Shown here in pieces: positions 10,313 through 60,547 of a DNA stretch of 64,000 nt. The notes under the pieces are model-generated. The model was not told the origin of the DNA, searched no databases, and saw nothing but the letters and a program-made list of their open reading frames with translations. The translations under genes and the position numbers were made by a program. The DNA comes from a virus (taxonomy: Duplodnaviria > Heunggongvirae > Uroviricota > Caudoviricetes), in the IMG/VR virus record IMGVR_UViG_3300017649_000004; one strand, given 5' to 3'. Positions within the stretch are counted from its first letter, which is position 1. Each line of letters begins with the position of its first letter.

Positions 10313-10852
10313 GTGGCTGAATATCCTATCAAAGTCACTGCCCAATCGTTCAACCATTCGGGCGGGACGAAATCATACCACCTCATGCTGATCCGAACGG
10401 TGACTGGTAAATGCGTCATCGTTCGCCGGTGGGGCAGAGTCGGCCAGTTCGGCCAGCTGAAGGCCGAGCACTACAACACCGTCTCGTCGGCAATGGAGGC
10501 TTTTGAAAGCCTGATCGATGAGCGCCGGCGCAAGGGCTACTCCGCAGCTGGCCTGTCGGTCGAGCGCGAGGCCAAGACGCAAAACGATCTGGTCTCGGCA
10601 ATCACCCTGCCGGTGTTCTCCAAGCTTGGCCCCAAGACCATCAACCACCTCGACCCGACCTACGACACCTCGCGTATGCACGAGCCTGACGAGCCGACGC
10701 TCGATGAGGACACCTTGCGCAAGGTTCGTCAGCCGACGGCGCGCGGCATCTCCCAGGAAGAATACGAGGAAATGGTGCGCCGGCAGGAGGCAGAGCGGCT
10801 CGCGGTCGAGCGCAACCACTACGAATCCATCCCTGAATTTGGAATGTTCTGA
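10313..10852 (+). CDS. hypothetical protein with C-terminal ...IPEFGMF tail
   Basis: 179 aa with a GTG start. It ends with the shared NPxFGMF-stop motif, and its TGA overlaps the next ATG. Confidence 0.5.
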   Translation: MAEYPIKVTAQSFNHSGGTKSYHLMLIRTVTGKCVIVRRWGRVGQFGQLKAEHYNTVSSAMEAFESLIDERRRKGYSAAGLSVEREAKTQNDLVSAITLPVFSKLGPKTINHLDPTYDTSRMHEPDEPTLDEDTLRKVRQPTARGISQEEYEEMVRRQEAERLAVERNHYESIPEFGMF

Positions 10853-13091: not shown

Positions 13092-14216
13092 TCATTCGCG
13101 CCTGCGCTGCGCATAGCGGCGCAGTTCGCCCGCAAGATTGACCTTGCCCTCCCTGATCAGGCGCACCAATGCCCTGAAATAGCCGCCGGCGTTCTTGATC
13201 GGGTCCGATCCGGGCGTCGGCTGTGCCTGTAGCTGCACCACATAGACGAGCGTTGCCGCCGCGGGCAGGTGCCCAATTCGCTCGCAAGCTTCCTCCCAGC
13301 CCGACGGCGACACGCCAAATGCGCCTCTCATGCGCGCGGCGGCCGCAATCAACTCCCGATCCGAGCGCACTTCGCCGAAAAATTCCATTGCGTCAGGGCA
13401 AGTGTGGATCAAATCCGCGGCGTTCGCAGTTAGACTCGGCGGTTCGGCCCCACTAGTAGACTCATTGCCGTTGTTACAAGACTGGTCAGGGGCATATTTG
13501 TTATGGTCTTCATGACGGCCATTCTTGCCGCCACAGGCGGCATAATATCTTCCCTCGGCTTCCTCACGCAGCTGCTTCCACTCCGACCGGAACGGTTCAA
13601 CCGCGCATCCCTTGGCAGAGCGCCTGGGAGAGCGTCTGGCAAGCTCGAGGGCTCGCGCCGTCAGGTCGCTGATGTCTTCCTGCGGGAAATACTCGGCAAG
13701 CGCCCTGAGCGCTTCCTGAGCCGAACGGCGATGCACCGTCAGTTCATCGAAGGCCAGCTTCCACTCATGCTCGCGCTCGGCCTGCGCCTGCACCATCTGA
13801 CGCCACTCTTCCATGCGCGCGACGAGCGGGCCAAGGTCGAAGCCATAGGCACGAATGATCTGGCCCTGCCGTGAGCGCTGGGCAAACCGCTTGCCGTTCG
13901 GGCTGTCCTTGGTGGTGATGACGCCAAGCTCGATCAGCCGGCGAATGGCGTAGCGGATCGTGCGCTCGGGAACGCCCGTGCGCTCCACCAGGTATTCGTT
14001 CGACGGCCAGACGAGCATCCGGCCCTCAATCAGTTCACCGCCATAGACGGCGCAAAGCTGGTCGAGAATGTAGCGGCAGCCGGTATTCAGGCTGAGCGCC
14101 TTGGCGCACAGACGCGCCGCCTCAAAAAGATCCTGTTTGTCGGCTGAACTCGGCTCGACTGGTAACGGCGCAAGCGCCGCCATCGAGCGCCAACCGGTAT
14201 GTTGCGCTTTCCTCAT
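13092..14216 (-). CDS. repC: RepC-like plasmid replication initiator
   Basis: The N-terminal region 'LDQLCAVYGGELIEGRMLVWPSNEYLVERTGVPERTIRYAIRRLIELGVITTKDSPNGKRFA...AYGFDLGPL' resembles the repABC RepC N-terminal domain (the DSPNGKRYA motif). The gene is on the minus strand in an otherwise plus-strand genome. Confidence 0.6.
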   Translation of the reverse strand: MRKAQHTGWRSMAALAPLPVEPSSADKQDLFEAARLCAKALSLNTGCRYILDQLCAVYGGELIEGRMLVWPSNEYLVERTGVPERTIRYAIRRLIELGVITTKDSPNGKRFAQRSRQGQIIRAYGFDLGPLVARMEEWRQMVQAQAEREHEWKLAFDELTVHRRSAQEALRALAEYFPQEDISDLTARALELARRSPRRSAKGCAVEPFRSEWKQLREEAEGRYYAACGGKNGRHEDHNKYAPDQSCNNGNESTSGAEPPSLTANAADLIHTCPDAMEFFGEVRSDRELIAAAARMRGAFGVSPSGWEEACERIGHLPAAATLVYVVQLQAQPTPGSDPIKNAGGYFRALVRLIREGKVNLAGELRRYAQRRRE

Positions 14217-14870: not shown

Positions 14871-15377
14871 ATGAGCGAAGCACAGGGGCGCCCCGAGAAA
14901 GACAACGAAATCGGCCGGTTCATCGAAGGACGGATGAGTCAGCTTGGCCTCACACAGCGTGAGGTTGCGGATATCGTCGGCTTTAAGAACCGCAATATGC
15001 TCTCATTCATCAAGAACGGCGACGGCAAGCTCCCACTTGAGCGCGTTGCCGGCATGGCGCGCGCGCTTAAAGTTCCAGCTTCCGAGTTGTTCGAGATGGC
15101 GCTTAGACAGCACTACTCGTCGGACACCATTGAGCTGATGAAGCAGGCGCTCACAGAGGCGTCCCTTTCAAGAGACGAGGCAGAACTCCTGGACCTGTTT
15201 CGGGTTCATGTGCCGCGCGGCAAGTTTACAGCCGACGCCCTGCGCCGGATAGCCGACGAGATGGAAAAGACTGGCAAAGACCAGGCGGTCGAAGCGGCTC
15301 GTAAGCAACTCGCCGAGGCGGCAAGGTTCGGCCGCAGGGCCGTGCCGAATGAGGAGATCGAACCCGAAGAAAGCTGA
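14871..15377 (+). CDS. HTH XRE-family (Cro/CI-type) transcriptional regulator
   Basis: 'MSQLGLTQREVADIVGFKNRNMLSFIKNGDGKLPLERVAGMARALKVPASELFEM' is a canonical XRE helix-turn-helix. It is transcribed divergently from the RHH gene. Confidence 0.7.
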   Translation: MSEAQGRPEKDNEIGRFIEGRMSQLGLTQREVADIVGFKNRNMLSFIKNGDGKLPLERVAGMARALKVPASELFEMALRQHYSSDTIELMKQALTEASLSRDEAELLDLFRVHVPRGKFTADALRRIADEMEKTGKDQAVEAARKQLAEAARFGRRAVPNEEIEPEES

Positions 15378-15737: not shown

Positions 15738-18086
15738 ATGAACCGTGAAATCGTAGAGCTCCGCGAAGTCATCACGAAGCTGGTGCCGCTGCTGGCTGGT
15801 CGTGGCCTCAAGGTCACGCAGCGTGGCAGCCAGGCTTACGTGAATGCTGATCCGGTCACGAAGAAGCCAGTGTCGGTCAACATTCCGAACATTTCGGACA
15901 ACGCATCGCCGGACTTCATCCGCGCGATCCAGGGCTTCATCGATCACGAAGTGGCTCATGTCCTCTACACGGACTGGAACCACTACTGCCGCGGTGCGTC
16001 TGCGGCAGATTTGAAGAAGCCGGAAGTGCAGCGCTTCATGAACACCCACAACATCGTGGAGGACACGATGATTGAGCGGCGCATGGTCGAGGACTTCCCC
16101 GGCTCAAGCCGCAATCTGTCGGACACGCGCCGCTACTTCCTTGAGCGCATCACCAAGAAGGCGCTCGAGACAGCCAAGAACGACAAGGAAGCGTTCATCT
16201 ACCTGCTCGTGCCGACCATGCGCGCGCTCGCTGGTCAGCAGGAGATGCAGGACTTCATGGATGACGGCGGCTACTGGAAGAACCCCTTCGTCAAGGGCGT
16301 GGTCGAAGGCTTGAAGCCTGACACCCTCCAGAAGCTCAAGAAGGCGCGCTCCACGATCGAGACGCTGGAGATTGCCGAAGAACTCCACGCAATTCTCTAT
16401 CCGCCGCAGCCTCCGGCACCACCCATGCCGTCGGCACCGTCCGACTGCGATGACGAGGGGCAGGACAGCGACAGCAGCTCCGGCAGCCCGAGCTCCTCGA
16501 AGAAGAGCAAGGACAAGCCCGAGAAGAAGGCTGACGAGGGTGATGGCGACGGTGAGCGCGATCACCAGGAGTCAGGCGAGGAGGGCACGTCCAAGGACAA
16601 GAAGGGCAAGAAGGACAAGTCGAAGAAGGACGACAAGTCCGACGAGGAGAAGGAGGAAGGCGCTGGCGACAAGGGCGATGACGAGGACGCCCGCGACGGC
16701 GAGGAAGACGAGGACGGCGAAGGCGGTGATGCCGGCGACGATGATGGCGAGTCTGACGCCGGTGACGAGGGCGAGGAGGAAGACGACGACAAGGGCAAAG
16801 ACAAGGGCTCTGACGGCGACGAGGAAGAAGGCGGAGACGACGAGGGCGAAGGCTCCGGCGGCGAAGGAGACGATGAGTCTGAGGACGCCGATGAAGGCGG
16901 CGATGATGAGAACGGTGAGGATGGCTCTGGAGCGCCCGGCAAGTCCGGCGACAAGGGCGGTGACTCCGACGAGGAAGGAAAGAAGAAGGCACCGGAAGTG
17001 ATCACCGAAGGTGCTGACGGTGGCGGCGTTGGTGAAATGAACGGCGACGACACCGAAAACTCTCCTGGTGGCGGCGTCAGCAACGACGAAGGTAAGAGCC
17101 TGTTCGACTTCGATGACGATGCCTTCGAAGAAGCGGACATGAGCAAGCAGATCGCGATCCTCATCTCCGACGAAGCCGTCGAAGCGATGGATCCTGCCGA
17201 ATACCTCGTCTACACGCGCGAGTTCGACCGGATCGAGCCCGTCAACGTGCCTGACAAGATGGATTCGACCTGGGTGCCGAAGATGGAAGAGGAAGTGCGT
17301 CTGACGAGCGGCCGCTTGCAGAAGGACATTGAGCGGATGCTCGCCTCGCAGTCGCACGTCATCCGCACGCCTGGTCACAAGAAGGGCAAGCTACATGCGC
17401 CTTCGCTCTATCGCGTGATGCAGGGCGATCCGCGCGTGTTCACGCAAAAGCAGGAGCATGTGTCGAAGGACACGGCAGTGACCCTTCTGTGCGACAACTC
17501 CGGCTCTATGGGCGGTGCCAAGATGAAGCTCGGCATGATTTCGTCCTACGCGCTGGCGGTCACGCTCGAACGGGTCAAGATCAGCTACGAAGTGCTCGGC
17601 TTCACCACCGGCAACTTCTCGCGCATTCCCAACTCGATCCTCGAAGCGATGCAGGACGAAGTGGCAAAGACCGGTCTGCGATACGATCGGATCGAGCCGA
17701 TCAACATGCCGATCTACAAGGACTTCGATGAGCGGCTCGATGCGCGCGTAAAGGCGAGGTTCGCTTACATGATGTTCGCGCAGCGCGGTCTGAACGGCAA
17801 CATCGACGGCGAGTCCCTCGAATATGCTGCCATGCGCCTGATGAAACGCCCTGAAAAGCGCAAGGTGATGATCGTGCTGTCTGATGGTCAGCCTGCCGGA
17901 TCCTGGCGCTCCGGGCCTCACCTCAAGACGGTGGTCGAGCGCCTCAACAAGACGGGCATCGAGACCGTCGGCATCGGCATCATGGATCGCTCCGTGGCGC
18001 GCTACTACGACAAGCATGTGGTCATCACCAAGCTCGACGACCTGCCGGGCAGCGTCATGGGCGAGTTGAAGCGCATTCTGACGTAA
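15738..18086 (+). CDS. cobT: CobT-like vWA-domain protein with a hyperacidic D/E/G-rich linker
   Basis: C-terminal vWA MIDAS motif 'LLCDNSGSMGG'. There is a ~250-aa acidic low-complexity tract in the middle. Partnered with the downstream CobS-like AAA+ gene. Confidence 0.75.
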   Translation: MNREIVELREVITKLVPLLAGRGLKVTQRGSQAYVNADPVTKKPVSVNIPNISDNASPDFIRAIQGFIDHEVAHVLYTDWNHYCRGASAADLKKPEVQRFMNTHNIVEDTMIERRMVEDFPGSSRNLSDTRRYFLERITKKALETAKNDKEAFIYLLVPTMRALAGQQEMQDFMDDGGYWKNPFVKGVVEGLKPDTLQKLKKARSTIETLEIAEELHAILYPPQPPAPPMPSAPSDCDDEGQDSDSSSGSPSSSKKSKDKPEKKADEGDGDGERDHQESGEEGTSKDKKGKKDKSKKDDKSDEEKEEGAGDKGDDEDARDGEEDEDGEGGDAGDDDGESDAGDEGEEEDDDKGKDKGSDGDEEEGGDDEGEGSGGEGDDESEDADEGGDDENGEDGSGAPGKSGDKGGDSDEEGKKKAPEVITEGADGGGVGEMNGDDTENSPGGGVSNDEGKSLFDFDDDAFEEADMSKQIAILISDEAVEAMDPAEYLVYTREFDRIEPVNVPDKMDSTWVPKMEEEVRLTSGRLQKDIERMLASQSHVIRTPGHKKGKLHAPSLYRVMQGDPRVFTQKQEHVSKDTAVTLLCDNSGSMGGAKMKLGMISSYALAVTLERVKISYEVLGFTTGNFSRIPNSILEAMQDEVAKTGLRYDRIEPINMPIYKDFDERLDARVKARFAYMMFAQRGLNGNIDGESLEYAAMRLMKRPEKRKVMIVLSDGQPAGSWRSGPHLKTVVERLNKTGIETVGIGIMDRSVARYYDKHVVITKLDDLPGSVMGELKRILT
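16440..17110 (+). repeat. GAC/GAG/GGC-rich low-complexity coding repeat (CobT acidic linker)
   Basis: Runs of gacgag/gaagac/ggcgat codons that produce long mirror ORFs on both strands. Confidence 0.6.
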
Positions 18087-18198
18087 GAAAATGTCAGTAT
18101 GGGCTTACTTTCCCTATAGACTCCCAAACTCGATGTAAGTAAGTTCTTCATTACTAGAGCGCAGACGCGAGCGCTTAGCACACAAGAGGGAATTTCAC

Positions 18199-19461
18199 AT
18201 GACGGACACTGCTCTCGTCGCCGACAACGCGTCGGCGGCCACCGCCACTGTTGCGACTCCTGATGACGGCAAGATCGTTTGCCAGCTCGATGGTGTTCGC
18301 TGCCACATCATTCAGACGCACCTGCGCGACCATCATCCGAACTACACGATCGAGGACTATATCCGCGATTATCCGGATGCTCCGCTCATGTCGCCGACGG
18401 CTCTGGCGATGAAGGAGAAGCGCGAGAAGGAGCTGGCTGCCAAGAAGGCGGCTCAGGCAGCGGCCGCACCAGCAGGTGCCCAGGCAGCGCTCGTCACTGA
18501 AAGCGTTGGCGCAGCTTCGCTCGTTGCCAAGAACGAGCTGTTCCATGAGGTCTTCGAACTCGGCAATGCGCCGGCGGCGATGAACTCGATGGGCAAGCCA
18601 ATCCCTTGCACCGTGTTCACCGGTCACGACCACCTCTCGCGCGACTATCTGGCAGAGGTCGATAAGGCCTATGTGTTCAACATCGACCTGCTCAAGAAGG
18701 TCATGGTGGGCTTGCAGCTCAACATTCCGATCTATCTGTGGGGTATGCACGGCACTGGTAAGACGACCGTGCTCGAACAGGCAGCTGCGCGCACTCGCCG
18801 GCCGTTCCTGCGCAACCAGCACACCATCAACATGCAAGAGTCCGACGTTCTCGGACAGTGGACCGTCAAGGATGGCTCCACGCAGTTCCAGCTCGGGCCG
18901 CTGCCGATGGCGATGATCCACGGCTGGGTCTACTGCGCCGACGAGTATGACTTTGCCATGCCGTCCGTGACCGCGCTCTACCAGCCGGTGCTCGAAGGCA
19001 AGCCGCTGCTGATCAAGGAAGCGCCGGCAGAGTTCCGCAAGATCGAGCCGCATCCGAACTTCCGCTTCTGCGCAACCGGCAACACGAATGGCGGCGGTGA
19101 CGAGACTGGCCTCTACCAAGGCACGCTGGTGCAGAACGCGGCGAACTACTCGCGCTTCGGCATCACCGAAGAAGTCAAATACATGGAGCCGGCGCTCGAG
19201 GAGAACGTGATTTGCGCCAAGACGCGGATCAGCAAGTCGGATGCTTCGAAGATCGTCCGGTTCGGCAACGACATTCGCAAGGCCTTCGGTGAAGGCAAGA
19301 TCAGCGCGACCGTCTCGCCGCGTGAGTTGATCTGCGCCGCTCGCCTGGGTGTCGCATTCGGCGGCAACTGGAAGATGGGCCTTGAACTTGCCTTCGGTAA
19401 CCGCCTCTCGCGCATCGATCGCAAGACCGTCGAGCAGTATCTCCAGCGGATCTTCCCGTAA
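18199..19461 (+). CDS. cobS: CobS/MoxR-like AAA+ ATPase
   Basis: Walker A 'LWGMHGTGKTTVLEQAA' and MoxR/CobS-type AAA+ organisation, sitting directly after the CobT-like gene. Confidence 0.75.
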   Translation: MTDTALVADNASAATATVATPDDGKIVCQLDGVRCHIIQTHLRDHHPNYTIEDYIRDYPDAPLMSPTALAMKEKREKELAAKKAAQAAAAPAGAQAALVTESVGAASLVAKNELFHEVFELGNAPAAMNSMGKPIPCTVFTGHDHLSRDYLAEVDKAYVFNIDLLKKVMVGLQLNIPIYLWGMHGTGKTTVLEQAAARTRRPFLRNQHTINMQESDVLGQWTVKDGSTQFQLGPLPMAMIHGWVYCADEYDFAMPSVTALYQPVLEGKPLLIKEAPAEFRKIEPHPNFRFCATGNTNGGGDETGLYQGTLVQNAANYSRFGITEEVKYMEPALEENVICAKTRISKSDASKIVRFGNDIRKAFGEGKISATVSPRELICAARLGVAFGGNWKMGLELAFGNRLSRIDRKTVEQYLQRIFP

Positions 19462-20096
19462 TGCAGCAAGTGAAATACCGCGACCCGAAGGAGTCGAAGG
19501 CGCAGATCCGCGCCTTCGCCTACAAAGTTCTGCGGCGCATTCATGCACTGGGCGGCAAGACCACCTCGCTTGAGGACGTCGAGCAGGAGCTTTGGATTGC
19601 CTGGTGCAAGGCGTGCGAAGCCTATGACGAGAAGGGCGGCGCAAGCTTCAAGACCTTCCTGCACATCGGCATGGTGCGTCACATCAACCGCTACGTGCAG
19701 AACAACTTCGAGCGCCTGCACGGTGAAACGGTTGCGCTCTCGCTCGAAGCACCGATGGGTGACGATGACGGCGCAACGCTCGCTGAGGCTGTTCCTGACA
19801 CGGCCGAGCGTCAGGACACGAAGCTGATCGAGGAAGACGTCAAGGAGCGCGTGATGCGCCGGCTGACGCCTCGGGCACGTCAGTTCGTCCAGATCCTGCA
19901 CGACCAGCCGATCGAGCTGGTCCGGGAGCTGGACAAGTTCAAAGAGAAGCAAAAGGTCGCGCGCGAAGTCGGGGTTCAGTTCTCCGCTCCGCGCCGCCTC
20001 ACCAGCTGGATGGTTTTCGATCTCATGGGCGCCAGCCGCACGGAGCGCACGGCGATCATGCGCGAAATCGAAGCCGTCACAAGAAAGTTCGCCTGA
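19461..20096 (+). CDS. sigma-70 family (ECF-like) RNA polymerase sigma factor
   Basis: Region-2-like 'ELWIAWCKACEAYDEKGGASFKTFLHIGMVRHINRYV' and region-4-like 'LTPRARQFVQILHDQP'. Overlaps the cobS stop (TAATG). Confidence 0.6.
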   Translation: MQQVKYRDPKESKAQIRAFAYKVLRRIHALGGKTTSLEDVEQELWIAWCKACEAYDEKGGASFKTFLHIGMVRHINRYVQNNFERLHGETVALSLEAPMGDDDGATLAEAVPDTAERQDTKLIEEDVKERVMRRLTPRARQFVQILHDQPIELVRELDKFKEKQKVAREVGVQFSAPRRLTSWMVFDLMGASRTERTAIMREIEAVTRKFA

Positions 20097-20831: not shown

Positions 20832-23800
20832 ATGCACTCCATCCTGGCTGCGCGCACCGACTTCTCTGTCGGCGAGGCCATCCTGACCGTCGAGCAACTG
20901 GTCAAGGCGGCCGTCGAGGCAGGTGAGAAGGTCGTCGCGCTTACCGACACCATGTCGATCACCGGCATGATCGACTTCACCAATCGCGCAAAGAAGGCCG
21001 AGCTGAAGCCGATCATCGGCACCAGGCTCAGGCTCACCGACAATCCGACCTGGCGGCCGACGGGCGACGAAAAGCGCAAGAACATGCCGCGCTCCTACTA
21101 TCTGACCGTCTATGCGCGCTCGGAAGCAGGAATGCAGGCGATCTACCGGCTGCTGACGCTCGCAAACAGTGAGGTGCGCTTCTACTACGAGGCAAAGCTC
21201 GGCTTCGAGGACTTCTATGAGGAGCTCGAAAAGGTCGGGCCTGACGAGCTTGCAATCGTGCTTGGCGACAGCCAGTCCGTCCTTGAGCATCCCGATTGCG
21301 AGACGATCACGCACAAGCTCGGTCAGCTCTGCTCGGCAGTCTTTGCGCCGCTGATCCCGATCCAGACGCCCTATTTCGGCCGCCTGAACCAGATCGCTGC
21401 CGAGCTTGTCACCAAGGAGCTCGCAAAGCCGATCGTCGTGCGTCCGGCTCTCTATGCCAAGGGCGAAGCCGACACCCAGGAAGTGATGACGGCGATCGCC
21501 GAGAACCAGAAGATCACCGATCCGTGGTTCTGTATGCGCTACAACCGCGACATGCACGTCATGGGCGTGCAGGAGCTGGTCGAGCACATCAAGGTCATGG
21601 CCGATCACCTGACGAAACGCGGCACGAGCATTGGCGCCATGTTCCGCGAGGGTCTGCTCAATACGCGCGTCCTTGCCGGCCTCATCGGCTACGAGTGGAA
21701 GAAGCAGCTGCCGTCCCTGCCGAAGATGGCGGATGACGAGTTCATGGCGGTGATGAAGGCGTGCAAGGAAGGCTGGGAGAAGCGCTTCAACGACAAGGTA
21801 TTCGGCCACCGTCCGGGCGACGAGGAGCTCGAGAAGGTCTACAAGCCGCGCCTTGCCTACGAGCTGTCGGTGCTCAAGAAGCTCAACTTCTCGGGCTACT
21901 TCCTGCTGGTGCAGGACGTGGTGCAGTTTGCGAAGTCGAACGGCATCATGGTGGGCCCGGGTCGTGGCTCCGTTGGTGGATCCCTCGTTGCCTATCTGAT
22001 GGGCATTACCGAGTGCGATCCGATCCGCTTTGGCCTTCTGTTCGAGCGCTTCATCAACCCGGAACGTATCGACCTGCCTGACGCCGACCTCGACTTCATG
22101 TCCGAGCGCCGGCACGAGGTGTTCGAATATCTGCTGCGCAAGTATGGCGCCGAGCGTGTGGCCGGCGTGTCGAATTTCGGCACTCTTGGTGCGCCGTCCG
22201 CCATTCGCGACGTCGGCCGCACGACCGGCATTCCTGAGCGTGAATATTCGGTTTCGAAATACGTGCCGAAGGTTCACGGCCAGACGGTCGAGTTGAACAA
22301 GGCGCGCGAGGAAGTCCCGGAGATTGACCAGTTCGCGCAGAAATATCCGTTCCAGTGGAAGATCATGGAGCGGCTCGAAGGCACGATCCGCAACTTCAGC
22401 CAGCACGCCGCCGGTGTCGTGGTTGCCGGCTGCGATCTGGTCGAGCGCGCGGTGCTTGAAAAGCGCAAGGACGGCTATGTCGTGTGCTGGGACAAGCGCA
22501 TCGTTGAGGAGCAGGGCCTGATCAAGATGGACGTCCTGGGGCTCAACACCCTCGACGTCATCAAGCTTGCCCTCGACTATATCCGCGAGCGCACGGGCAA
22601 GGAGCCCGATCTCATGCGCATTCCGCTTGACGACCATGAGGTGCTGCAAAACTTCGCCAAGGCGAACACGACCGGCATCTTCCAGTTCGAGTCTGGCGGT
22701 ATGCGCCGTCTGCTCAAGGAGCTCGGCGCCGACGGCACGATCACCTTCGACGACATCACCGCGGCCACCGCGCTGTTCCGTCCTGGTCCGATCGAGTCCG
22801 GCATGATGGACTCCTACTATCTGCGCAAGCAGGGCAATGAGCGCGTCGATTACGACCACCCGCTTCTGGAGCCGATCCTGAAAGAGACGTTCGGCGTCAT
22901 CGTCTACCAGGAGCAGGTCATGAAGATTTCGCAGGTCATCTGCGGCTACTCCGGTGCCGACGCTGACAAGCTGCGCAAGATCATGGGCAAGAAGCTGCCG
23001 GAGGAGATGCGCAAGGAGAAGGTGAAGTTCGTTGACGGCGCAGTCAAGACGATTGGCTGCGACAGGGACTGGGCAGAAGCGCTGTTCGATAAGATCGAAG
23101 GCTTTGCCTCCTACGGCTTCAATAAGTCGCATTCCGTAGAATACACGCTCATCTCCTATCAGGCCATGTGGCTCAAGACCTACCATTCGGTCGAGTTCTA
23201 CGCGGCTGCGCTGTCGCTGCTGAAAGAGGACAAGCTGCCGGGCCTGATCCGTGACGCAAAGATGCTTGGCATCGACGTCTCGATGCCCGACATCAACATT
23301 TCGACCGACCGGTTCGAGATTGCCACCGACGTGCGCCTGGTCATTCCGCTACAGCGCATCAAGGGCCTGTCCGAGCGCGCAACGCAGGAAATCATCAATG
23401 CGCGCAAGGCCGGCGGTCCCTTCAAGGACAAGGCCGACTTCGTGTCGCGTGTCGCGCGGCGCATCGTCAACGCAAGGGTGCAGGACGCGCTTGATCGTGT
23501 GGGTGCATTTGCGCGCATCGAGCCCGGTCAGTTGCCGGCGAACGATCCGAGCCGCGTGAAGGACCAGATCGAACTTATCCCGGGTCTGATTGCCGCGCAT
23601 GTGCCGATCAATCGCGAAATGCACCGCGACAAGCTGACGAAGGAAGCGATTGGCGAGGTCATCTACGAGTATCGCGCCAATCATGGTCCCGGCAGCGGCC
23701 AGGCAGACGGAGTGCCGGTCAAGCCCTCCTTCGGCAAGGAAGCCGAGTTCGTGATCATCTCCGACGCGCCGAACGGTGAAGAGGAGCAGGTGGGCATGAT

Positions 23801-24191
23801 GGGCTGGTCGCAGTCGAATGGTGCCGTCATTGAAGCGATGGCGGAGGTCAGCTTGCAGCGCGAGCACGCCTACTGGACCTCGCTGATCAAGCGGCCGAAG
23901 CGCGGCAAGCAGGTCACGCCCGAAGAGGTCGCGACTTACCTTCCCTACCTCAAGCGTGAGCTTGAGATCCTCGAGCCGCCGATCATCGTGCTGCTCGGCT
24001 CTCAGACGGTGCGCACCTTCATTCCGGACTTCAAGGGCAAGGCCTCTGACAGTGCCGGCAAGGTCGTCTACTCGAAGGAATATGACGCCAATCTCGTCAT
24101 CGGCTTCTCGCCCGGTGAGATTTGGCATGACCCCGACAAGCAGCAGAACATGAATGAGGTGTTCGCTGCGGTTGCAACTCTGCTCGCATAG
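20832..24191 (+). CDS. dnaE: DNA polymerase III alpha subunit (DnaE-type, with N-terminal PHP domain)
   Basis: 1119 aa. 'GFNKSHSVEYTLISYQAMWLKTYHSVEFYAAALS' matches the DnaE palm/fingers signature. The N-terminal region is PHP-like. Confidence 0.85.
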   Translation: MHSILAARTDFSVGEAILTVEQLVKAAVEAGEKVVALTDTMSITGMIDFTNRAKKAELKPIIGTRLRLTDNPTWRPTGDEKRKNMPRSYYLTVYARSEAGMQAIYRLLTLANSEVRFYYEAKLGFEDFYEELEKVGPDELAIVLGDSQSVLEHPDCETITHKLGQLCSAVFAPLIPIQTPYFGRLNQIAAELVTKELAKPIVVRPALYAKGEADTQEVMTAIAENQKITDPWFCMRYNRDMHVMGVQELVEHIKVMADHLTKRGTSIGAMFREGLLNTRVLAGLIGYEWKKQLPSLPKMADDEFMAVMKACKEGWEKRFNDKVFGHRPGDEELEKVYKPRLAYELSVLKKLNFSGYFLLVQDVVQFAKSNGIMVGPGRGSVGGSLVAYLMGITECDPIRFGLLFERFINPERIDLPDADLDFMSERRHEVFEYLLRKYGAERVAGVSNFGTLGAPSAIRDVGRTTGIPEREYSVSKYVPKVHGQTVELNKAREEVPEIDQFAQKYPFQWKIMERLEGTIRNFSQHAAGVVVAGCDLVERAVLEKRKDGYVVCWDKRIVEEQGLIKMDVLGLNTLDVIKLALDYIRERTGKEPDLMRIPLDDHEVLQNFAKANTTGIFQFESGGMRRLLKELGADGTITFDDITAATALFRPGPIESGMMDSYYLRKQGNERVDYDHPLLEPILKETFGVIVYQEQVMKISQVICGYSGADADKLRKIMGKKLPEEMRKEKVKFVDGAVKTIGCDRDWAEALFDKIEGFASYGFNKSHSVEYTLISYQAMWLKTYHSVEFYAAALSLLKEDKLPGLIRDAKMLGIDVSMPDINISTDRFEIATDVRLVIPLQRIKGLSERATQEIINARKAGGPFKDKADFVSRVARRIVNARVQDALDRVGAFARIEPGQLPANDPSRVKDQIELIPGLIAAHVPINREMHRDKLTKEAIGEVIYEYRANHGPGSGQADGVPVKPSFGKEAEFVIISDAPNGEEEQVGMMGWSQSNGAVIEAMAEVSLQREHAYWTSLIKRPKRGKQVTPEEVATYLPYLKRELEILEPPIIVLLGSQTVRTFIPDFKGKASDSAGKVVYSKEYDANLVIGFSPGEIWHDPDKQQNMNEVFAAVATLLA

Positions 24192-25214: not shown

Positions 25215-26261
25215 ATGGATTCTGCACTTCGCAAAATGGTATCGCAGGCTAAGGCCAAGTATGCCGGCAATGCTGGCAAGGCCATCAAGCCGAACGAAGG
25301 TCGCAACACCTATCGTATTCTCGCGCCGAAGAACGTTTCCTGGACTGGTCCGAACGGTGAGTTCTGGGCAGACCTTGGCGTTCACTGGATCAAGGCGGAA
25401 GAGAACGCGAAGCCGGCTGTTGTGATCGGCGACTGCGATACCGTCTACCAGCAGCCGTCGGTGATCAACACCGCCATCGAAATGGCGATCAACTCCGCCA
25501 TGGATGAGGAGAGCAAGAAGCTCTACGAAAGCTGGAAGGCGCGCAAGTCGGTGCTGCTGAACGTCATCGACCGTTCGAGCGGCAACGAGGAGATCCTCGA
25601 GCTGACCCCCTCCACCTGGGGTAAGGTTCTTGAGCTTATCGCTCTCCACCTGGACTTCGGTCAGGACATCACCGATCCGGAAAACGGCGTCGACATCATC
25701 ATCACGCGCACCGGCAAGGGTCTGAACACCAACTACGACGTCGCTGTGGCTCCGGGTAAGAGCCAGCCGGTCACTCCGGAGCAGCTCGCGCGCGCCAAGG
25801 ACTTGCAGGAGTTCATCCGCTCGAACTACTTCCGCGGTGAAGAGCAGAAGGCACTGAACGCGATCCAGCAGTTTGCCGGTATCTCGGTGCCGCGTCTTGC
25901 TGGTCCGGCAAATGCCGGCGCACTCGCTGGCCCGGCAGCAGCAACGCTTGCTCGCACTCCGACCGCTGCGCTTGCTTCGCCGAACGTTGCTGTCGCTGAC
26001 GCGGCTGTCGATGTTGAGGTTCCGACCACGGCGGCTCCCGCTGCAACTGTCTCCGCTGAGGAGCAGGCAGCTATGGATGAGGCTGCTCGTCGCCGCGAGG
26101 AGATTCTGCGTCGTCAGCAGGAAGCGGCTCGTGAACTGGAAGAGCTTGAGCGCCAGGCCGCAGCAACCGCCCAGCCGGCTGCTGCCGTTACTCCCGCATC
26201 CGCGAACGTGTCGGCCGATGATGCCGACGCAATCCTGAGGGAGCTCGAGGGTCTGGGCTAA
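25215..26261 (+). CDS. putative single-stranded DNA-binding protein (T4 gp32-like)
   Basis: 348 aa. It sits between dnaE and the FEN/recA genes. The N-terminal pattern 'KAIKPNEGRNTYRILAPKNVSWTGPNGEFWADLGVHWI' is reminiscent of the gp32 core. It has an Ala/Pro-rich linker and an acidic C-terminal tail. The 5' leader is unusual. Confidence 0.5.
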   Translation: MDSALRKMVSQAKAKYAGNAGKAIKPNEGRNTYRILAPKNVSWTGPNGEFWADLGVHWIKAEENAKPAVVIGDCDTVYQQPSVINTAIEMAINSAMDEESKKLYESWKARKSVLLNVIDRSSGNEEILELTPSTWGKVLELIALHLDFGQDITDPENGVDIIITRTGKGLNTNYDVAVAPGKSQPVTPEQLARAKDLQEFIRSNYFRGEEQKALNAIQQFAGISVPRLAGPANAGALAGPAAATLARTPTAALASPNVAVADAAVDVEVPTTAAPAATVSAEEQAAMDEAARRREEILRRQQEAARELEELERQAAATAQPAAAVTPASANVSADDADAILRELEGLG

Positions 26262-33426: not shown

Positions 33427-33906
33427 GTGGCAAGACGAAAAGTGACCCTGACTGAAGAGGAACGCAAACTTCGCGAGGAGATCGGCTCGCAGATCGTAGA
33501 GAAGCTCAAGGAGCAGTCCTTCGAGTGCGAGAGCCTCTACAAAGCGACCGTCAAGTATGGCGAGGAGGAAGGCAACCGCTTTCGCAAGAAGGAGATCATC
33601 CCGGGCTGGGAGTTCTTCCTGTCCTACCACTATCTCGGCGCGGCCGGTCAGATGATCTTCGGCCTCATGCCGGAGGATGACCAGGAATACGAGTTCGTGG
33701 AGATGAACGCCAAGGAGCTCGACCAGGTATTCCCGCTCATGGGCTCCAAGATCGCCGAGACCTTTGGCGTGAAGGGCGAGAAGCTGCCGGAAGTGATCGA
33801 AAACGTCATCGCCAAGCATGTTGAGGATCAGCTGATGGCTGCGGCGCGCGAGCGTGAAGCAGCGATCGCCGCCTATGAGGACAATCCTGAGTTTGGAATG
33901 TTCTGA
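33427..33906 (+). CDS. hypothetical protein with C-terminal ...NPEFGMF tail
   Basis: 159 aa with a GTG start. It ends 'YEDNPEFGMF' and its TGA overlaps the next ATG. Confidence 0.5.
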   Translation: MARRKVTLTEEERKLREEIGSQIVEKLKEQSFECESLYKATVKYGEEEGNRFRKKEIIPGWEFFLSYHYLGAAGQMIFGLMPEDDQEYEFVEMNAKELDQVFPLMGSKIAETFGVKGEKLPEVIENVIAKHVEDQLMAAAREREAAIAAYEDNPEFGMF

Positions 33907-34217
33907 TGAACGATCTGACGGAAACTGAGCAGAAATACCTGCGCGTGTTCGTCCGGGAGCTCATGTCGCTTTACTCGAACCCGAGCAACGCGGCGGCGGC
34001 GGTGCTCGAGGCAGATAGCCGCAAGGCGGACATCTGGCACCTCCAGGGAAAGCTCCAGGAGGCCTTCACACGTCTCAGGAACCTCGAAATGTCACCGCCG
34101 GTGCCCGATGCGCATTTGCACATGCGTTTCGAGAAGCTGGCGGAAGAGGTCAGAGGCGAAATCACTGCGGTTTCCAACCGCGTCAACGAACTCATTCCCG
34201 GTTACGGAGCATTCTAA
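33906..34217 (+). CDS. hypothetical protein
   Basis: 103 aa. The C-terminus 'IPGYGAF' is a degenerate version of the FGMF tail. Confidence 0.45.
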   Translation: MNDLTETEQKYLRVFVRELMSLYSNPSNAAAAVLEADSRKADIWHLQGKLQEAFTRLRNLEMSPPVPDAHLHMRFEKLAEEVRGEITAVSNRVNELIPGYGAF

Positions 34218-46001: not shown

Positions 46002-46643
46002 ATGAGTGACCGCAAGAGCCACTTCATGTTCACGGCCAGCGGCCAGAAATACTGGCCGATGGAGCCGCGCAGCGAGGAGGTTGACATCGAGGTGATCGCG
46101 CATCACCTCGCCAACCAGTGCCGCTACAATGGCGCAACGCGTCATCCGAAGTTCCCGCGCCGGATCTTCTATTCGGTCGCTGAGCACTCGGTCTATGTCG
46201 CCCACTACATCGAGCACGATCTCGGTCAGCCGCAGTTCGCGCTTGAAGGTCTGCTGCATGATGCAGCCGAAGCCTACATTGGCGACCTCATTCGCCCGCT
46301 CAAATACGACGATGCCTTCCGTGAGCCGTTCTTGCGGGTGGAGCAGCGCAACGAGGTTCGGATCGCCACGCGTTTCGGATTGCAGTATCCGTTCCCGCAA
46401 GCCGTGCGCCTGGCGGACGAGGCTGTGACGGCCGCCGAGGTTCAGCAGATCATCGCTGAGACGCCGGGCGAGGACTTCAAGACCGGCTATCTGCACGATG
46501 CGGCGACCACCGCGCCGGTCAAGATCGCGATGCACCCTCCGTTCGAAGCCAAGAACCTCTTTATGAACACGTTCCGCCGGCTGATGCTGGAGCGCAGCAA
46601 GTTCCGCGCAGTCCCGCAGTCGCTTGCGCTATATTGTAAGTAA
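46002..46643 (+). CDS. HD-domain phosphohydrolase (YfbR-like 5'-deoxynucleotidase)
   Basis: 'IAHHLANQCRYNG', 'VAEHSVYVA', and 'LLHDAAEAYIGD' form the H...HD...D metal-binding set. Confidence 0.65.
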   Translation: MSDRKSHFMFTASGQKYWPMEPRSEEVDIEVIAHHLANQCRYNGATRHPKFPRRIFYSVAEHSVYVAHYIEHDLGQPQFALEGLLHDAAEAYIGDLIRPLKYDDAFREPFLRVEQRNEVRIATRFGLQYPFPQAVRLADEAVTAAEVQQIIAETPGEDFKTGYLHDAATTAPVKIAMHPPFEAKNLFMNTFRRLMLERSKFRAVPQSLALYCK

Positions 46644-55502: not shown

Positions 55503-55659
55503 TCGTCCTCCCAAGACGAAGCGAAAGGGGCGGCGCATCTGCGTCGCCCCTCTTTTTGTTATCCGCCGGCTCCCATGGGCAGAACATTCCGCTCGCGTTC
55601 CTGCCGACTTCCAAGTGTTCGAGTGCGATTATCTTTGCATCAGCACAAAGGAGCACCGA

Positions 55660-56145: not shown

Positions 56146-56369
56146 TTGTGTTCCTGTTTTGTTCTCTCCGGAATAAATTCCTAGCTGCTTCGCTCGGCGC
56201 CGGCAACAGGATTCTCGACCCGCTCACAACCCGCGTCAGACCCAAGCTGACGCGCGCTATAAGTGACATGTGAGTAAGACGAGCAAAGGAGATAGCTAGA
56301 CGATTACATAGCTAGATAGCTATATCATGCTCCGATCTTCCGTTTCTGAAATTGCCTGGGAGCATGATG

Positions 56370-56525
56370 ATGACCAAAACAAACCCTGTAGCAAAAGCTC
56401 TCGCGAACCGTGCGCTGCATCAGCGCAAAGTCAAGCCGCGCAAGGGGCGCGGGAGCTACACCCGCAAGAACCAGAAAATCCCGGATGTTCCAGCCTGGTC
56501 GCGCATCGAGCCGCCGCCAGGATAG
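56370..56525 (+). CDS. small basic ORF with ArfA-like motif (tentative)
   Basis: About 52 aa, 'MTKTNPVAKALANRALHQRKVKPRKGRGSYTRKNQ...'. The KGRGSY-RK stretch recalls the ArfA ribosome-rescue motif. Confidence 0.2.
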   Translation: MTKTNPVAKALANRALHQRKVKPRKGRGSYTRKNQKIPDVPAWSRIEPPPG

Positions 56526-58087: not shown

Positions 58088-58290
58088 AAGTCCTCTACCA
58101 GAAGCTCAAGCAGGTCGCCGACAAGGAGGAGCGCCCCTACAAGGTGGGAATCGAGGTTGTGACCGGCTCATACCTTGAGGGCCAGGTCGTTGCGGCCGAC
58201 AGCTACCACCTGCATCTGATCAGCGATGACTACCACTGGTTCCTCAATTGGGATCACATCGTGGGGCTGACGATCAAATGGACGGCCTGA
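58084..58290 (+). CDS. hypothetical small protein
   Basis: 68 aa, ATGA overlap. Confidence 0.4.
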   Translation: MKVLYQKLKQVADKEERPYKVGIEVVTGSYLEGQVVAADSYHLHLISDDYHWFLNWDHIVGLTIKWTA

Positions 58291-58712
58291 CGATCACCGG
58301 AGGCGACGAGCAGCTCCACGAGGTCTTGAAAGCGATCCTCGGCGGCAATCGGCGCAGTGCCCGTGTTAGCGGATACAGTCCCGATGGCTGTTGGATCGAC
58401 GAATACACGACGACCCTGCGGCCGATGCCAAAGGTCTACGCGACCTTCACCGACGAGCGTGTGCCCGACGTGATGGTCCAGATCGTGGACGGCAACATCG
58501 AGCATCCCCGGTTCAAGCCTGTGAAGAGCCGGAAGGGCGAAACCCTGCGATTTCAGACGCCCTACCAGGTCAAGGTGAACGAGAAGGTGCTGCCCAAGGT
58601 CTACATGACACTGCGGGGAGCATCGAACAACGCCAAGACGATCCTTCGGGAACACGTCGAGGCATACATCAGGGAGAACATCGCCAACAATCCGACCTTC
58701 GGAATGTTCTGA
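58278..58712 (+). CDS. hypothetical protein with C-terminal ...NPTFGMF tail
   Basis: 144 aa from ATG at 58278. Ends 'IANNPTFGMF'. Confidence 0.5.
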   Translation: MDGLTITGGDEQLHEVLKAILGGNRRSARVSGYSPDGCWIDEYTTTLRPMPKVYATFTDERVPDVMVQIVDGNIEHPRFKPVKSRKGETLRFQTPYQVKVNEKVLPKVYMTLRGASNNAKTILREHVEAYIRENIANNPTFGMF

Positions 58713-58799: not shown

Positions 58800-58991
58800 A
58801 TGCAACCGCCGAAGAACGTTTTGGATTACCTCGCTGATTGTGCTGAACAGGCAGGCGAGGCCTTTCCGGGCGAGATTAAAGCCCGACTCTGGAATCCCGG
58901 CGCCCACGGTCCTTCATCGACCACAGCGCTGATCGTAGGGCTTGTCGATGGGCGTGACGTGAAGATCACCGCTGAGGTGATGCTGTCATGA
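58800..58991 (+). CDS. hypothetical small protein
   Basis: 63 aa, RBS AAGGAGGG. Confidence 0.4.
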   Translation: MQPPKNVLDYLADCAEQAGEAFPGEIKARLWNPGAHGPSSTTALIVGLVDGRDVKITAEVMLS

Positions 58992-59236
58992 GCACCAACA
59001 AGCGCCGTCGCGAAATCATGGCTTTCGCGAAAACCCTTTGTCCTGACGCTCGTATGGAAATGTCAGGCGACAACCATCTGCGCGTCATCTTTACCGGGCC
59101 GCTCGGGACCAGGAAGGTTCACCTGTCCCTGACCCCATCGGACCATCGTGACGCCAAGAACAGCCGACGCGACATGCTCCGCGCTGCGCGCACCGTCGGT
59201 CTCATCCCCGCGAACGACTCCAGAAAGGAGGGCTGA
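58988..59236 (+). CDS. hypothetical small protein
   Basis: 82 aa, ATGA overlap. Confidence 0.4.
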   Translation: MSTNKRRREIMAFAKTLCPDARMEMSGDNHLRVIFTGPLGTRKVHLSLTPSDHRDAKNSRRDMLRAARTVGLIPANDSRKEG

Positions 59237-59237
59237 C

Positions 59238-59786
59238 ATGAAGAAGGTCGTTCAGGAGGCACGCAAATTTGCCAAGGCACATCACAAGGAACAGCGGCGT
59301 CCCTACACGGGACGCCCTTACGTCGAGCATCTGAAGGGTGTCGCTGGCATCGTAAGCAAGGTTCCAGGTGCAACGCCGCAGATGATCGCTGCGGCCTGGC
59401 TGCACGATGTGGTGGAGGACACGCCCGTCGATTTCGATGAGGTCTACTCACGCTTCGGTTATGAGGTGGGCGAGCTTGTCGATGCCCTGACCAACTACAC
59501 GAACAAGGACCGGCAGAACGCCTTCGAGCTGAATTGCATCCGGCTCGAAATGTCACCGGCGGCCGCACAGACCATCAAGTGCGCCGACATCCTGCACAAC
59601 GTCTCCGACATCATCGCTGTCGCGCCACGGGGTAAAGCGCTGTCTTACGTCGGCGAGAAGCTGTCGGTTCTTTCCAGGCTCAACTCCGCGGATCCCGATC
59701 TGCGCGCAAGGGCGATCGAGGCCTGTCTTGCCGTCCAGCTCGAGGACGCGCTCGAGGAGCCGGCAGCAATGAGGATGGCCGCATGA
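59238..59786 (+). CDS. small alarmone hydrolase, RelA/SpoT-type HD domain ((p)ppGpp hydrolase-like)
   Basis: 'AHHKEQRRPYTGRPYVEHLKGVAGIV...AAWLHDVVEDTPVDFDEV...FGYEVGELVDALT' matches the SpoT/Mesh1 HD signature HxxxxR...PY..H...LHDxxEDT...FG.eV..LVd. Single-domain, 182 aa. Confidence 0.7.
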   Translation: MKKVVQEARKFAKAHHKEQRRPYTGRPYVEHLKGVAGIVSKVPGATPQMIAAAWLHDVVEDTPVDFDEVYSRFGYEVGELVDALTNYTNKDRQNAFELNCIRLEMSPAAAQTIKCADILHNVSDIIAVAPRGKALSYVGEKLSVLSRLNSADPDLRARAIEACLAVQLEDALEEPAAMRMAA

Positions 59787-60097
59787 CGTTCCGCACCTCA
59801 GTCGCCTGCTTCGACATGAACGACCCGCTGAGCAAGTGCATCGCCGAATACTCCGCCATGATGCGCGGCGCCGGCCCAGGCACGGAGCTCTGCACCCAGT
59901 TGCGCGACCAGATGATGAACGATCCGCTGGTCGTCGCCAACGCCGAGGAGCTGCTCCAGATGATCCCGCGCAACGGCGATCAGGTCGACATAATCATGCG
60001 CGTTGCCTGCAAGCGCGTTCTTGCCCGCACCGCTGCTCAAGAGAAGAAGCAATCCCTCGCGCACCTTCAGACGAACCCGCTGTTCGGAATGTTCTGA
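59783..60097 (+). CDS. hypothetical protein with C-terminal ...NPLFGMF tail
   Basis: 104 aa. Ends 'LQTNPLFGMF'. Confidence 0.5.
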   Translation: MTFRTSVACFDMNDPLSKCIAEYSAMMRGAGPGTELCTQLRDQMMNDPLVVANAEELLQMIPRNGDQVDIIMRVACKRVLARTAAQEKKQSLAHLQTNPLFGMF

Positions 60098-60169: not shown

Positions 60170-60547
60170 GTGAATATCGAGAACATCAATCGGCTGATCG
60201 CCGCGCTCCGCTCGCCAAAAGGTGTGGGATTTAACCTGGGAACCTACGTGGGGGAGCAAACCGACAAATTGCCTGACCAGACAGGCAACAACCTTCCGTA
60301 TGTGGCGTGCCTGGCTGGTCACGCTTTCATGCTGCACACGGGAATGCCGCCTGGCGACGCAAAAGAGGTCGATCCAGACACCATTGAGGAAGCCGCTGTG
60401 GCGTTCCTCGGTGTCTCCCGCCGCCAGGGCTGGGAGCTGTTCTTCGACCTCCCGGATGAGGTCGTGCTTGAAACAATCACCGTCGACCAGGCGGTCGCCA
60501 CGCTGGAGCGGCTGAAGGCGACTGGCGAAGTCCGCTGGGAGCTCTGA
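60170..60547 (+). CDS. hypothetical protein
   Basis: About 125 aa with a GTG start and RBS AGGAG. Confidence 0.45.
   Translation: MNIENINRLIAALRSPKGVGFNLGTYVGEQTDKLPDQTGNNLPYVACLAGHAFMLHTGMPPGDAKEVDPDTIEEAAVAFLGVSRRQGWELFFDLPDEVVLETITVDQAVATLERLKATGEVRWEL

Follow-up and report, generated by a model that had tools for sequence, protein, structure and literature searches.

Two phage-encoded small alarmone hydrolases (SAHs), PaSpo of phage SSU5 and PbcSpo of phage PVP-SE1, were tested experimentally in 2020, and both neutralized all five of the toxic alarmone synthetases tested, namely, CapRel, PhRel, PhRel2, FaRel and FaRel2 (PMC7229694). SAHs of the PbcSpo type, represented by ATfaRel of C. 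marina and the PVP-SE1 protein, are type IV antitoxins or broad neutralizers of toxic small alarmone synthetases (toxSAS), and the authors suggested that, with SAHs, incoming phages evade abortive infection mediated by alarmones (PMC7229694). PaSpo is routinely used to detoxify CapRel in expression (PMC9712102). Other phages affect the same signalling by different means: the MazG-like Atd1 depletes alarmones and blunts TIR-dependent abortive infection (bioRxiv 10.1101/2022.06.09.495361), and T7, whose growth is restricted by the stringent response, counters this response by means of its portal protein (PMC13483052). Together, the published work on phage SAHs, Atd1 and T7 makes the lowering of alarmones plausible as a phage strategy. 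In the literature that we searched, there was no study of the role of a phage SAH in a real infection.

Here we describe an SAH gene in a 64,000-nucleotide stretch of DNA (hereafter, the window) from a Caudoviricetes genome, IMGVR_UViG_3300017649_000004. The gene is real but ordinary, a divergent SAH of a type already known in hundreds of phages. With a probability of roughly 0.8, it encodes a functional stand-alone SAH that would remove alarmones and thereby keep the infected or phage-carrying cell permissive, where activity, substrate range, timing and benefit are what we infer.

Gene structure, family assignment and active site

The first-pass annotation placed a single-domain RelA/SpoT-type hydrolase at 59238..59786, and the coordinates, start and stop of this open reading frame were verified. 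It encodes 182 aa on the + strand, from an ATG at 59238 to a TGA stop at 59784-59786, and its strong Shine-Dalgarno sequence falls within the last codons of the upstream gene (stop 59234-59236). A longer version starting from the GTG at 59148 is disfavoured because it would run into the upstream gene and because the alignments with homologues begin at the ATG (M1). No sigma-70 consensus promoter was found near the gene, and searches for tRNAs and Rfam families across the window returned none. The features of the gene are as follows:

59225-59232, + strand: Shine-Dalgarno sequence AAGGAGGG, read from the sequence, 5 nt before the ATG
59238..59786, + strand: SAH coding sequence with a single RelA/SpoT-type HD (HD_4) domain, from profiles, alignments and model
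59298..59330, + strand: codons R21 to H31; R21 corresponds to MESH1 R24 (nucleotide-binding Arg) and H31 to MESH1 H35 (first metal ligand), both invariant in 46 homologues
59403..59420, + strand: codons H56-D57-V-V-E60-D61 (CAC GAT GTG GTG GAG GAC), the HD metal-binding dyad and the ED catalytic dyad, aligned with MESH1 H61-D62 and E65-D66
59586..59600, + strand: codons D117 to N121 (KCADILHN); D117 corresponds to MESH1 D122 (metal ligand) and N121 to MESH1 N126

Profile searches, catalytic residues and the predicted fold concur in the assignment of the protein to stand-alone RelA/SpoT-type alarmone hydrolases, as had been proposed from the sequence. The reported HD_4 signature is present as HHKEQRRPYTGRPYVEH...WLHDVVEDT...FGYEVGELVDALT, and by profiles it is far above chance, with 52 bits (E 8.8e-14) to Pfam HD_4 (PF13328), for which the curated cutoff is 27.2 bits. 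The phage protein family PHROG 990 (‘metal-dependent phosphohydrolase’) is matched with an E of 1.6e-35 over residues 4-154, and the NCBIfam matches are confined to the N-terminal hydrolase part of spoT_relA (TIGR00691, E 7.8e-20) and to SpoT models. As initially noted, no synthetase domain is present: HD_4 and HD are the only matches in the 182 aa, TGS and ACT domains are also lacking, and the size lies within the SAH criterion of ~160-220 aa. The homologues are proteins of 150-245 aa that likewise contain HD_4 only. Among solved structures, all significant sequence matches are RelA/SpoT homologue (RSH) hydrolases, led by human MESH1 (3nr1, E 1.5e-16) and including Drosophila Mesh1, the hydrolase domains of Rel, RelA and SpoT, and bacterial SAHs.

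Loss of the catalytic H/D residues had been named at the outset as an observation that would speak against the assignment; on careful alignment, these residues are all intact. Among 46 diverse homologues, no substitution occurs at R21, H31, H56, D57, E60, D117 or N121, and at least 90% have D61; these active-site residues are also invariant in comparison with the proteins of Rhizobium phages RHph_X66 and RHEph10, SSU5 PaSpo and human MESH1. In the alignments, R21 maps to R24 of MESH1, H31 to H35, H56-D57 to H61-D62, E60-D61 to E65-D66, D117 to D122 and N121 to N126. The roles of these MESH1 residues, as metal ligands, catalytic dyad and nucleotide pocket, we take to be those of the MESH1 and RelSeq literature. 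With its catalytic residues intact, the SAH appears, from its sequence, to be catalytically competent.

An AlphaFold2 model built from the 46-homologue alignment has eleven helices and is confident throughout (pLDDT 94.3, pTM 0.90). In a Foldseek search, MESH1 ranked first (TM 0.83/0.85, rmsd 1.9 Å over 170 columns), followed by the P. aeruginosa SAH, C. glutamicum RelH, the L. levettii SAH and Rel/SpoT hydrolase domains; all 44 matches at E<=1e-3 are RSH hydrolases or a (p)ppApp hydrolase, and 23 viral structure models match at the same threshold.

A decayed or non-catalytic HD remnant might be suspected from the Pfam results, given that the HD_4 match covers only the N-terminal 84 of the 156 profile positions and that the generic HD model scores 18.9 bits, under its threshold of 22. 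However, the PHROG 990 and PDB alignments extend over residues 4-154, all catalytic residues are present and do not vary within the family, model confidence is high from end to end, and 14 metagenome contigs carry the identical protein. The longest of these contigs, at 82.5 kb, come from a JGI and an ENA assembly, so that the window is part of a metagenomic phage contig. The alignments effectively refute a decayed remnant, which we regard as extremely improbable.

The substrate calls for more caution. MESH1 acts on NADPH and has been crystallized with PAPS, and hence the substrate range of the SAH, for which (p)ppGpp, (p)ppApp and pyrophosphorylated tRNA are candidate main substrates, is not readable from sequence; a 2025 phage genome paper attaches the same caveat to its own SAH (PMC12846349). 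The protein could thus be a MESH1-like phosphatase that acts mainly on other 2′/3′-phosphorylated nucleotides (NADPH, pGpp or PAPS-like compounds) and reshapes cofactor pools rather than alarmone signalling. The best solved matches are indeed MESH1 structures, including the NADPH and PAPS complexes, and a bacterial orphan SAH is reported to be metabolically promiscuous (PMC9765508). However, MESH1 itself hydrolyses ppGpp and neutralizes toxSAS (PMC7229694), and in BLASTP the SAH is about equally close to PaSpo (78.6 bits) and to MESH1 (70.9 bits), a comparison that serves as a proxy for placement with a PaSpo-subfamily HMM and in which the two scores lie too near each other to assign the subfamily. 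We therefore consider a primarily non-alarmone substrate very unlikely.

Phage lineage and synteny

That the gene belongs to a phage, as first proposed, is borne out by hallmark phage genes in the window and by synteny with Rhizobium phages. The window has ~60% GC throughout and nearly all of its genes are on the + strand. It encodes a tail fibre, DnaB, an ATP-dependent ligase, CobT/CobS, SbcC, ribonucleotide reductase and RIIA/RIIB, along with a DnaE-type polymerase of 1119 aa, a gp32-like SSB, a sigma-70-type factor and a DnaQ-like exonuclease; no sliding clamp gene was recognized in the window. The features relevant to replication and maintenance are the following:

13092-14183, − strand: RepC replication initiator, RP-C domain E 1e-42
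14871-15377, + strand: HTH_3 (XRE-type) regulator adjoining repC, domain match
15738-19461, 19461-20096, 20832-24191 and 25215-26261: replication module with a CobT/CobS-like pair, a phage sigma-70-type factor, a bacterial-type DnaE and a T4 gp32-like SSB

The window is collinear with the complete genomes of Rhizobium phages RHph_X66, V1VFA-S and B1VFA (72% identity in DnaE) and with the RHEph10 group (63%), all of which carry terminase, portal, capsid and tail genes; a more remote likeness in DnaE extends to SSU5-like Klebsiella and Escherichia phages. Both RHph_X66 and RHEph10 have annotated ParA, ParB and RepC. Taken with the ParA/ParB of its relatives, the RepC of the window hints at a host in the Rhizobiales and perhaps at life as a plasmid prophage; judging from gene content, the phage may persist in such a host as a plasmid prophage, that is, in a phage-plasmid-like state.

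An orthologue of the SAH occupies the syntenic position in RHph_X66 (40% identity, E 2e-35) and in RHEph10 (35%). It has diverged more between the sister phages than have the replication proteins (55-72% identity), with position and active site being kept, which may point to an arms race or to looser constraint on residues other than those of the active site. In blastn, the region of 57-62 kb had no match among 50,697 phage records, so that relatives exist only at the protein level. In tblastn, 293 phage records from a wide range of host genera contained homologues of the SAH, none of them reaching 60% identity, and among 5.8 billion clustered proteins there was no relative above 50% identity other than the protein itself.

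Maintenance as a plasmid prophage would open the possibility that the SAH serves the lysogen, for instance, by providing immunity against the (p)ppApp-synthetase toxins of competitors or by tuning the stringent response. Consistent with such a benefit of carriage are the RepC beside an HTH_3 protein in the window, the ParA/ParB/RepC sets of RHph_X66 and RHEph10, and the DnaE shared by SSU5 relatives and the window lineage. Bacterial SAHs are described as self-resistance partners of toxic alarmone synthetases (PMC9765508), and (p)ppApp is made by T6SS effectors (PMC12846349). However, the SAH gene lies in a long co-directional block of lytic type, away from the repC/regulator region, and a function in the lysogen appears unlikely.

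Neighbourhood of the SAH gene

The SAH gene was described as sitting among small early-type genes of no known family. The genes around it are indeed small + strand ORFans and its flanks lack a Pfam family; they may be ‘early-type’, judging by their position.

55526-55551: strong terminator-like hairpin preceding the co-directional block of small genes that holds the SAH gene
56285-56330: AT-richer intergenic segment with three copies of ATAGCTAGA/ATAGCTATA, immediately preceding the ArfA-like ORF
56370-56525, + strand: ArfA-like ORF, 51 aa, with the ArfA motif RKGRGSYTRK (...HQRKVKPRKGRGSYTRK...); Pfam ArfA 24.5 bits, E 1.8e-5
58988..59236, + strand: upstream small gene, 82 aa, 51% identity in RHph_X66, PHROG 2089 (unknown function) E 5e-6
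59783..60097, + strand: downstream gene, 104 aa, ending ...NPLFGMF, its start overlapping the SAH stop (ATGA)
60170..60547, + strand: second downstream gene, 125 aa, 45% identity in RHph_X66, no known family
46002-46643, + strand: second HD-domain protein, YfbR-like 5′-deoxynucleotidase, borderline at 23.2 bits versus 25.9

A homologue of the overlapping downstream gene follows the SAH in the RHph_X66 clade (31% identity, E 3e-13, with the tail FGAF in X66). Homologues were absent from RHEph10 and from the position after SSU5 PaSpo; a word-indexed homologue search recovered only the protein itself, and tblastn only the X66 clade. Given that the partner is confined to this clade and that an unrelated gene follows PaSpo, the pairing is clade-specific, which rules it out as a general feature of phage SAHs.

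No alarmone synthetase domain was detected in the flanks of the SAH or in the other (larger) ORFs of the window that were scanned. On the ORFs scanned, the gene is an orphan SAH and not the antitoxin of a toxSAS; a toxSAS-SAH module such as FaRel-ATfaRel was not observed, the flanking genes being ORFans of 82 and 104 aa. The second HD-domain protein, which is conserved in both sister phages, belongs to a different, YfbR-like HD family and was dismissed as a second alarmone enzyme.

The ArfA-like ORF, named for its likeness to alternative ribosome-rescue factor A, scores just below the Pfam ArfA threshold of 25.5 bits. It heads the co-directional block containing the SAH, and it was absent from the sister phages RHph_X66 and RHEph10. 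The repeat-bearing segment just before it may serve the block as an operator or promoter.

C-terminal tails

Two nearby genes had initially been seen to carry FGMF tails. Both tails are real (58278-58712 and 59783-60097) and belong to a more extensive pattern. A six-frame translation of the window contains four FGMF strings, every one of them immediately before the stop codon of a + strand gene, and a fifth gene carries a variant of the tail:

10385-10852, + strand: FGMF-ended gene (WGR-domain protein), six-frame scan
33442-33906, + strand: FGMF-ended gene, six-frame scan
33906-34217, + strand: fifth tailed gene, ends ...IPGYGAF, tail motif
58278-58712, + strand: FGMF-ended gene, six-frame scan
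59783-60097, + strand: FGMF-ended gene, six-frame scan
10841-10843, 33895-33897, 58701-58703 and 60086-60088, + strand: examples of tail GGA codons, window sequence

For the more general pattern [FY]G.F, 5 of the 12 occurrences in the window precede a stop, compared with a naive expectation of ~1 codon in 20. There are six tails in RHph_X66 (three FGAF, YGRF, FGGF and YGTF) and seven in RHEph10 (five FGRF, YGRF and FGMF). The consensus, [N/H]-P-x-[F/Y]-G-x-F-COOH, follows a charged helical stretch and is found on 5-7 unrelated, mostly ORFan proteins per phage. Orthologues at only 31-44% identity retain the tail, and its second-last residue is phage-specific, with M, A or R being preferred. A codon-specific scan of IMG/VR yielded 25 loci, comprising 7 chance matches in low-GC contigs and 18 genuine ORF termini, all from ORFs of 73 aa or more, the latter in phage contigs of 53-64% GC, mostly genomes of 110-118 kb. 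Furthermore, IMGVR_UViG_3300048913_000400 (12.4 kb), which has no protein similarity to the window, carries ten small ORFs ending in [F/Y]-G-x-F; the tail is thus not confined to the Rhizobium-phage lineage.

Codon usage in the tails is distinctive. The glycine codon is GGA in all five tails of the window, where GGA accounts for 7% and GGC for 68% of the glycine codons in genes, and it is GGR in 16 of the 18 tails of the window, RHph_X66 and RHEph10. In 11 of these 18, a start codon directly follows a tail with a GGR glycine; the remaining seven lack an adjacent start, and five of them also have GGR. The purine-rich tail codons probably double as a ribosome-binding site where the start of the following gene comes immediately (TGATG). 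An origin of the tail as a mere by-product of the Shine-Dalgarno sequence of the overlapping gene is only partly supported, given the seven tails that have no adjacent start and the retention of the tail in orthologues. The codons for N, P, F/Y and F vary synonymously which, together with the tails lacking an adjacent start, indicates that selection acts on the motif as a protein sequence.

Judged by these sequence patterns, the tail looks like a short linear motif that would dock unrelated proteins on one hub; a literature search on ‘FGMF’ returned nothing relevant. The sliding clamp, a protease core and the phage gp32-like SSB are candidates for the putative hub. It is conceivable, albeit rather doubtful, that the SAH is a node in a lineage-specific system of C-terminal addressing, in which the coupled product of 59783-60097 and 4-6 other tailed proteins dock on the common hub and the -AA end of the SAH (see below) times its activity. 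In such a system, the partner might deliver the SAH to the place where it acts, and proteolysis might then switch the enzyme off.

Ala-Ala protein ends

A second C-terminal pattern includes the SAH itself. By our own gene calls, -Ala-Ala ends are found in 12 of 78 genes of the window, 27 of 138 of RHph_X66 and 22 of 149 of RHEph10 (15-20% of proteins), compared with about 1-2 per genome expected from composition and with 1 of 42 in a sample of a Rhizobium etli plasmid.

5023, 12851, 27327, 28442, 34795, 39867, 41703, 44274, 46904, 48740 and 59786: ends of -Ala-Ala genes in the window, from gene calls

The ends are kept in orthologues of the ligase, RecA, the 5′-3′ exonuclease, DnaQ and RIIA, with varying codons, and the SAH terminates in -MAA in the window, -NAA in X66 and -EAA in SSU5. 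Composition or ATGA overlap as the sole cause was rejected, considering that 12-27 such ends are observed versus ~1-2 expected and that both the codons and the stop codons vary. ClpX classically recognizes a C-terminal -AA. The -Ala-Ala ends resemble ClpX-type C-terminal degrons, and by this likeness, the -AA could time SAH activity.

Possible role in infection

Gene integrity, family membership, the intact active site, predicted fold, phage context and syntenic conservation are supported directly. On this basis, the following course of action can be proposed for a functional SAH. The compact all-helical HD enzyme would bind a divalent metal (Mn2+ in characterized relatives) via H31, H56, D57 and D117, and the E60-D61 dyad would serve in the removal of the 3′-pyrophosphate from (p)ppGpp and probably from (p)ppApp. 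Expressed from the phage genome, the SAH would hold down alarmone levels in a cell that is infected by, or carries, the phage, so that host transcription, translation and replication would stay permissive for the phage and growth arrest by alarmone synthetases would be blunted. Lowering host alarmones or countering synthetase-based defence is the published hypothesis for the phage SAH class, backed by experiments on two other phage SAHs (PMC7229694), and may, by analogy, extend to the present protein.

A more specific version is dedicated counter-defence against the products of phage-triggered toxSAS of the CapRel, PhRel and FaRel types. It overlaps the best explanation, general alarmone removal, and differs only in substrate and selective pressure. 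The neutralization of toxSAS by the SSU5 and PVP-SE1 SAHs (PMC7229694) and the detoxification of CapRel by PaSpo (PMC9712102) are in line with it, and toxSAS are reported to pyrophosphorylate tRNA and to act in antiphage immunity. The genomic evidence points in both directions: the SAH gene lies in a variable block of small ORFans, typical of anti-defence regions, and the relatives carry counter-defence-like genes for RtcB, RNA ligase 2 and NAD salvage, but the SAH is fixed at one position across the lineage rather than being patchily distributed. We hold dedicated counter-defence as a tentative, though by no means negligible, refinement of the preferred reading.

Comparison with known systems

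Given the 293 phage records with homologues and the two phage SAHs that have been tested, the gene is a divergent addition to a known class, and by itself, it alters no current view. It does establish the SAH as a fixed syntenic feature of a lineage of large Rhizobiales phages, maybe phage-plasmid-like, and as this lineage has culturable members (RHph_X66 and RHEph10), it could be used to test phage SAHs in real infection. More unusual than the SAH are its surroundings, namely, the C-terminal tails, the -Ala-Ala ends and the ArfA-like ORF.

Among the systems compared, Atd1 shares the proposed strategy, depletion of (p)ppGpp that blunts abortive infection, but is a MazG pyrophosphatase of unrelated fold and chemistry and thus non-homologous. 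C. marina ATfaRel adjoins its toxSAS, whereas no synthetase gene was found beside the SAH of the window. The SAH of P. aeruginosa (6yvc), RelH of C. glutamicum (7qod) and the SAH of L. levettii (7qoe) are single-domain proteins of the same fold (TM 0.73-0.80), more remote in sequence (E 1e-4 to 1e-9). Metazoan MESH1 (HDDC3; PDB 3nr1, 5vxa, 9chy and 3nqw) is the best solved relative by both sequence and fold, being of the same size and having the same active-site residues; it differs in being eukaryotic and also an NADPH phosphatase, and the identity is 36%.

SSU5 PaSpo (SSU5_099, from a Salmonella phage) is, like the SAH of the window, a stand-alone phage RSH hydrolase with the same catalytic residues (39% identity over 150 residues, E 5e-23). 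Its C-terminus is likewise -AA, and SSU5 is part of the wider DnaE-encoding lineage. By contrast, PaSpo has 213 aa with a longer C-terminal extension and is followed by an unrelated gene, and it has been experimentally tested (PMC7229694), whereas the SAH of the window is known from sequence and model. Further counterparts are the orthologues of the RHph_X66/V1VFA-S/B1VFA and RHEph10 groups, which are annotated as ‘metal-dependent phosphohydrolase’ or ‘(p)ppGpp synthetase/hydrolase’ and are found at the identical genomic position, in the RHph_X66 clade together with the small genes upstream and downstream of the SAH.
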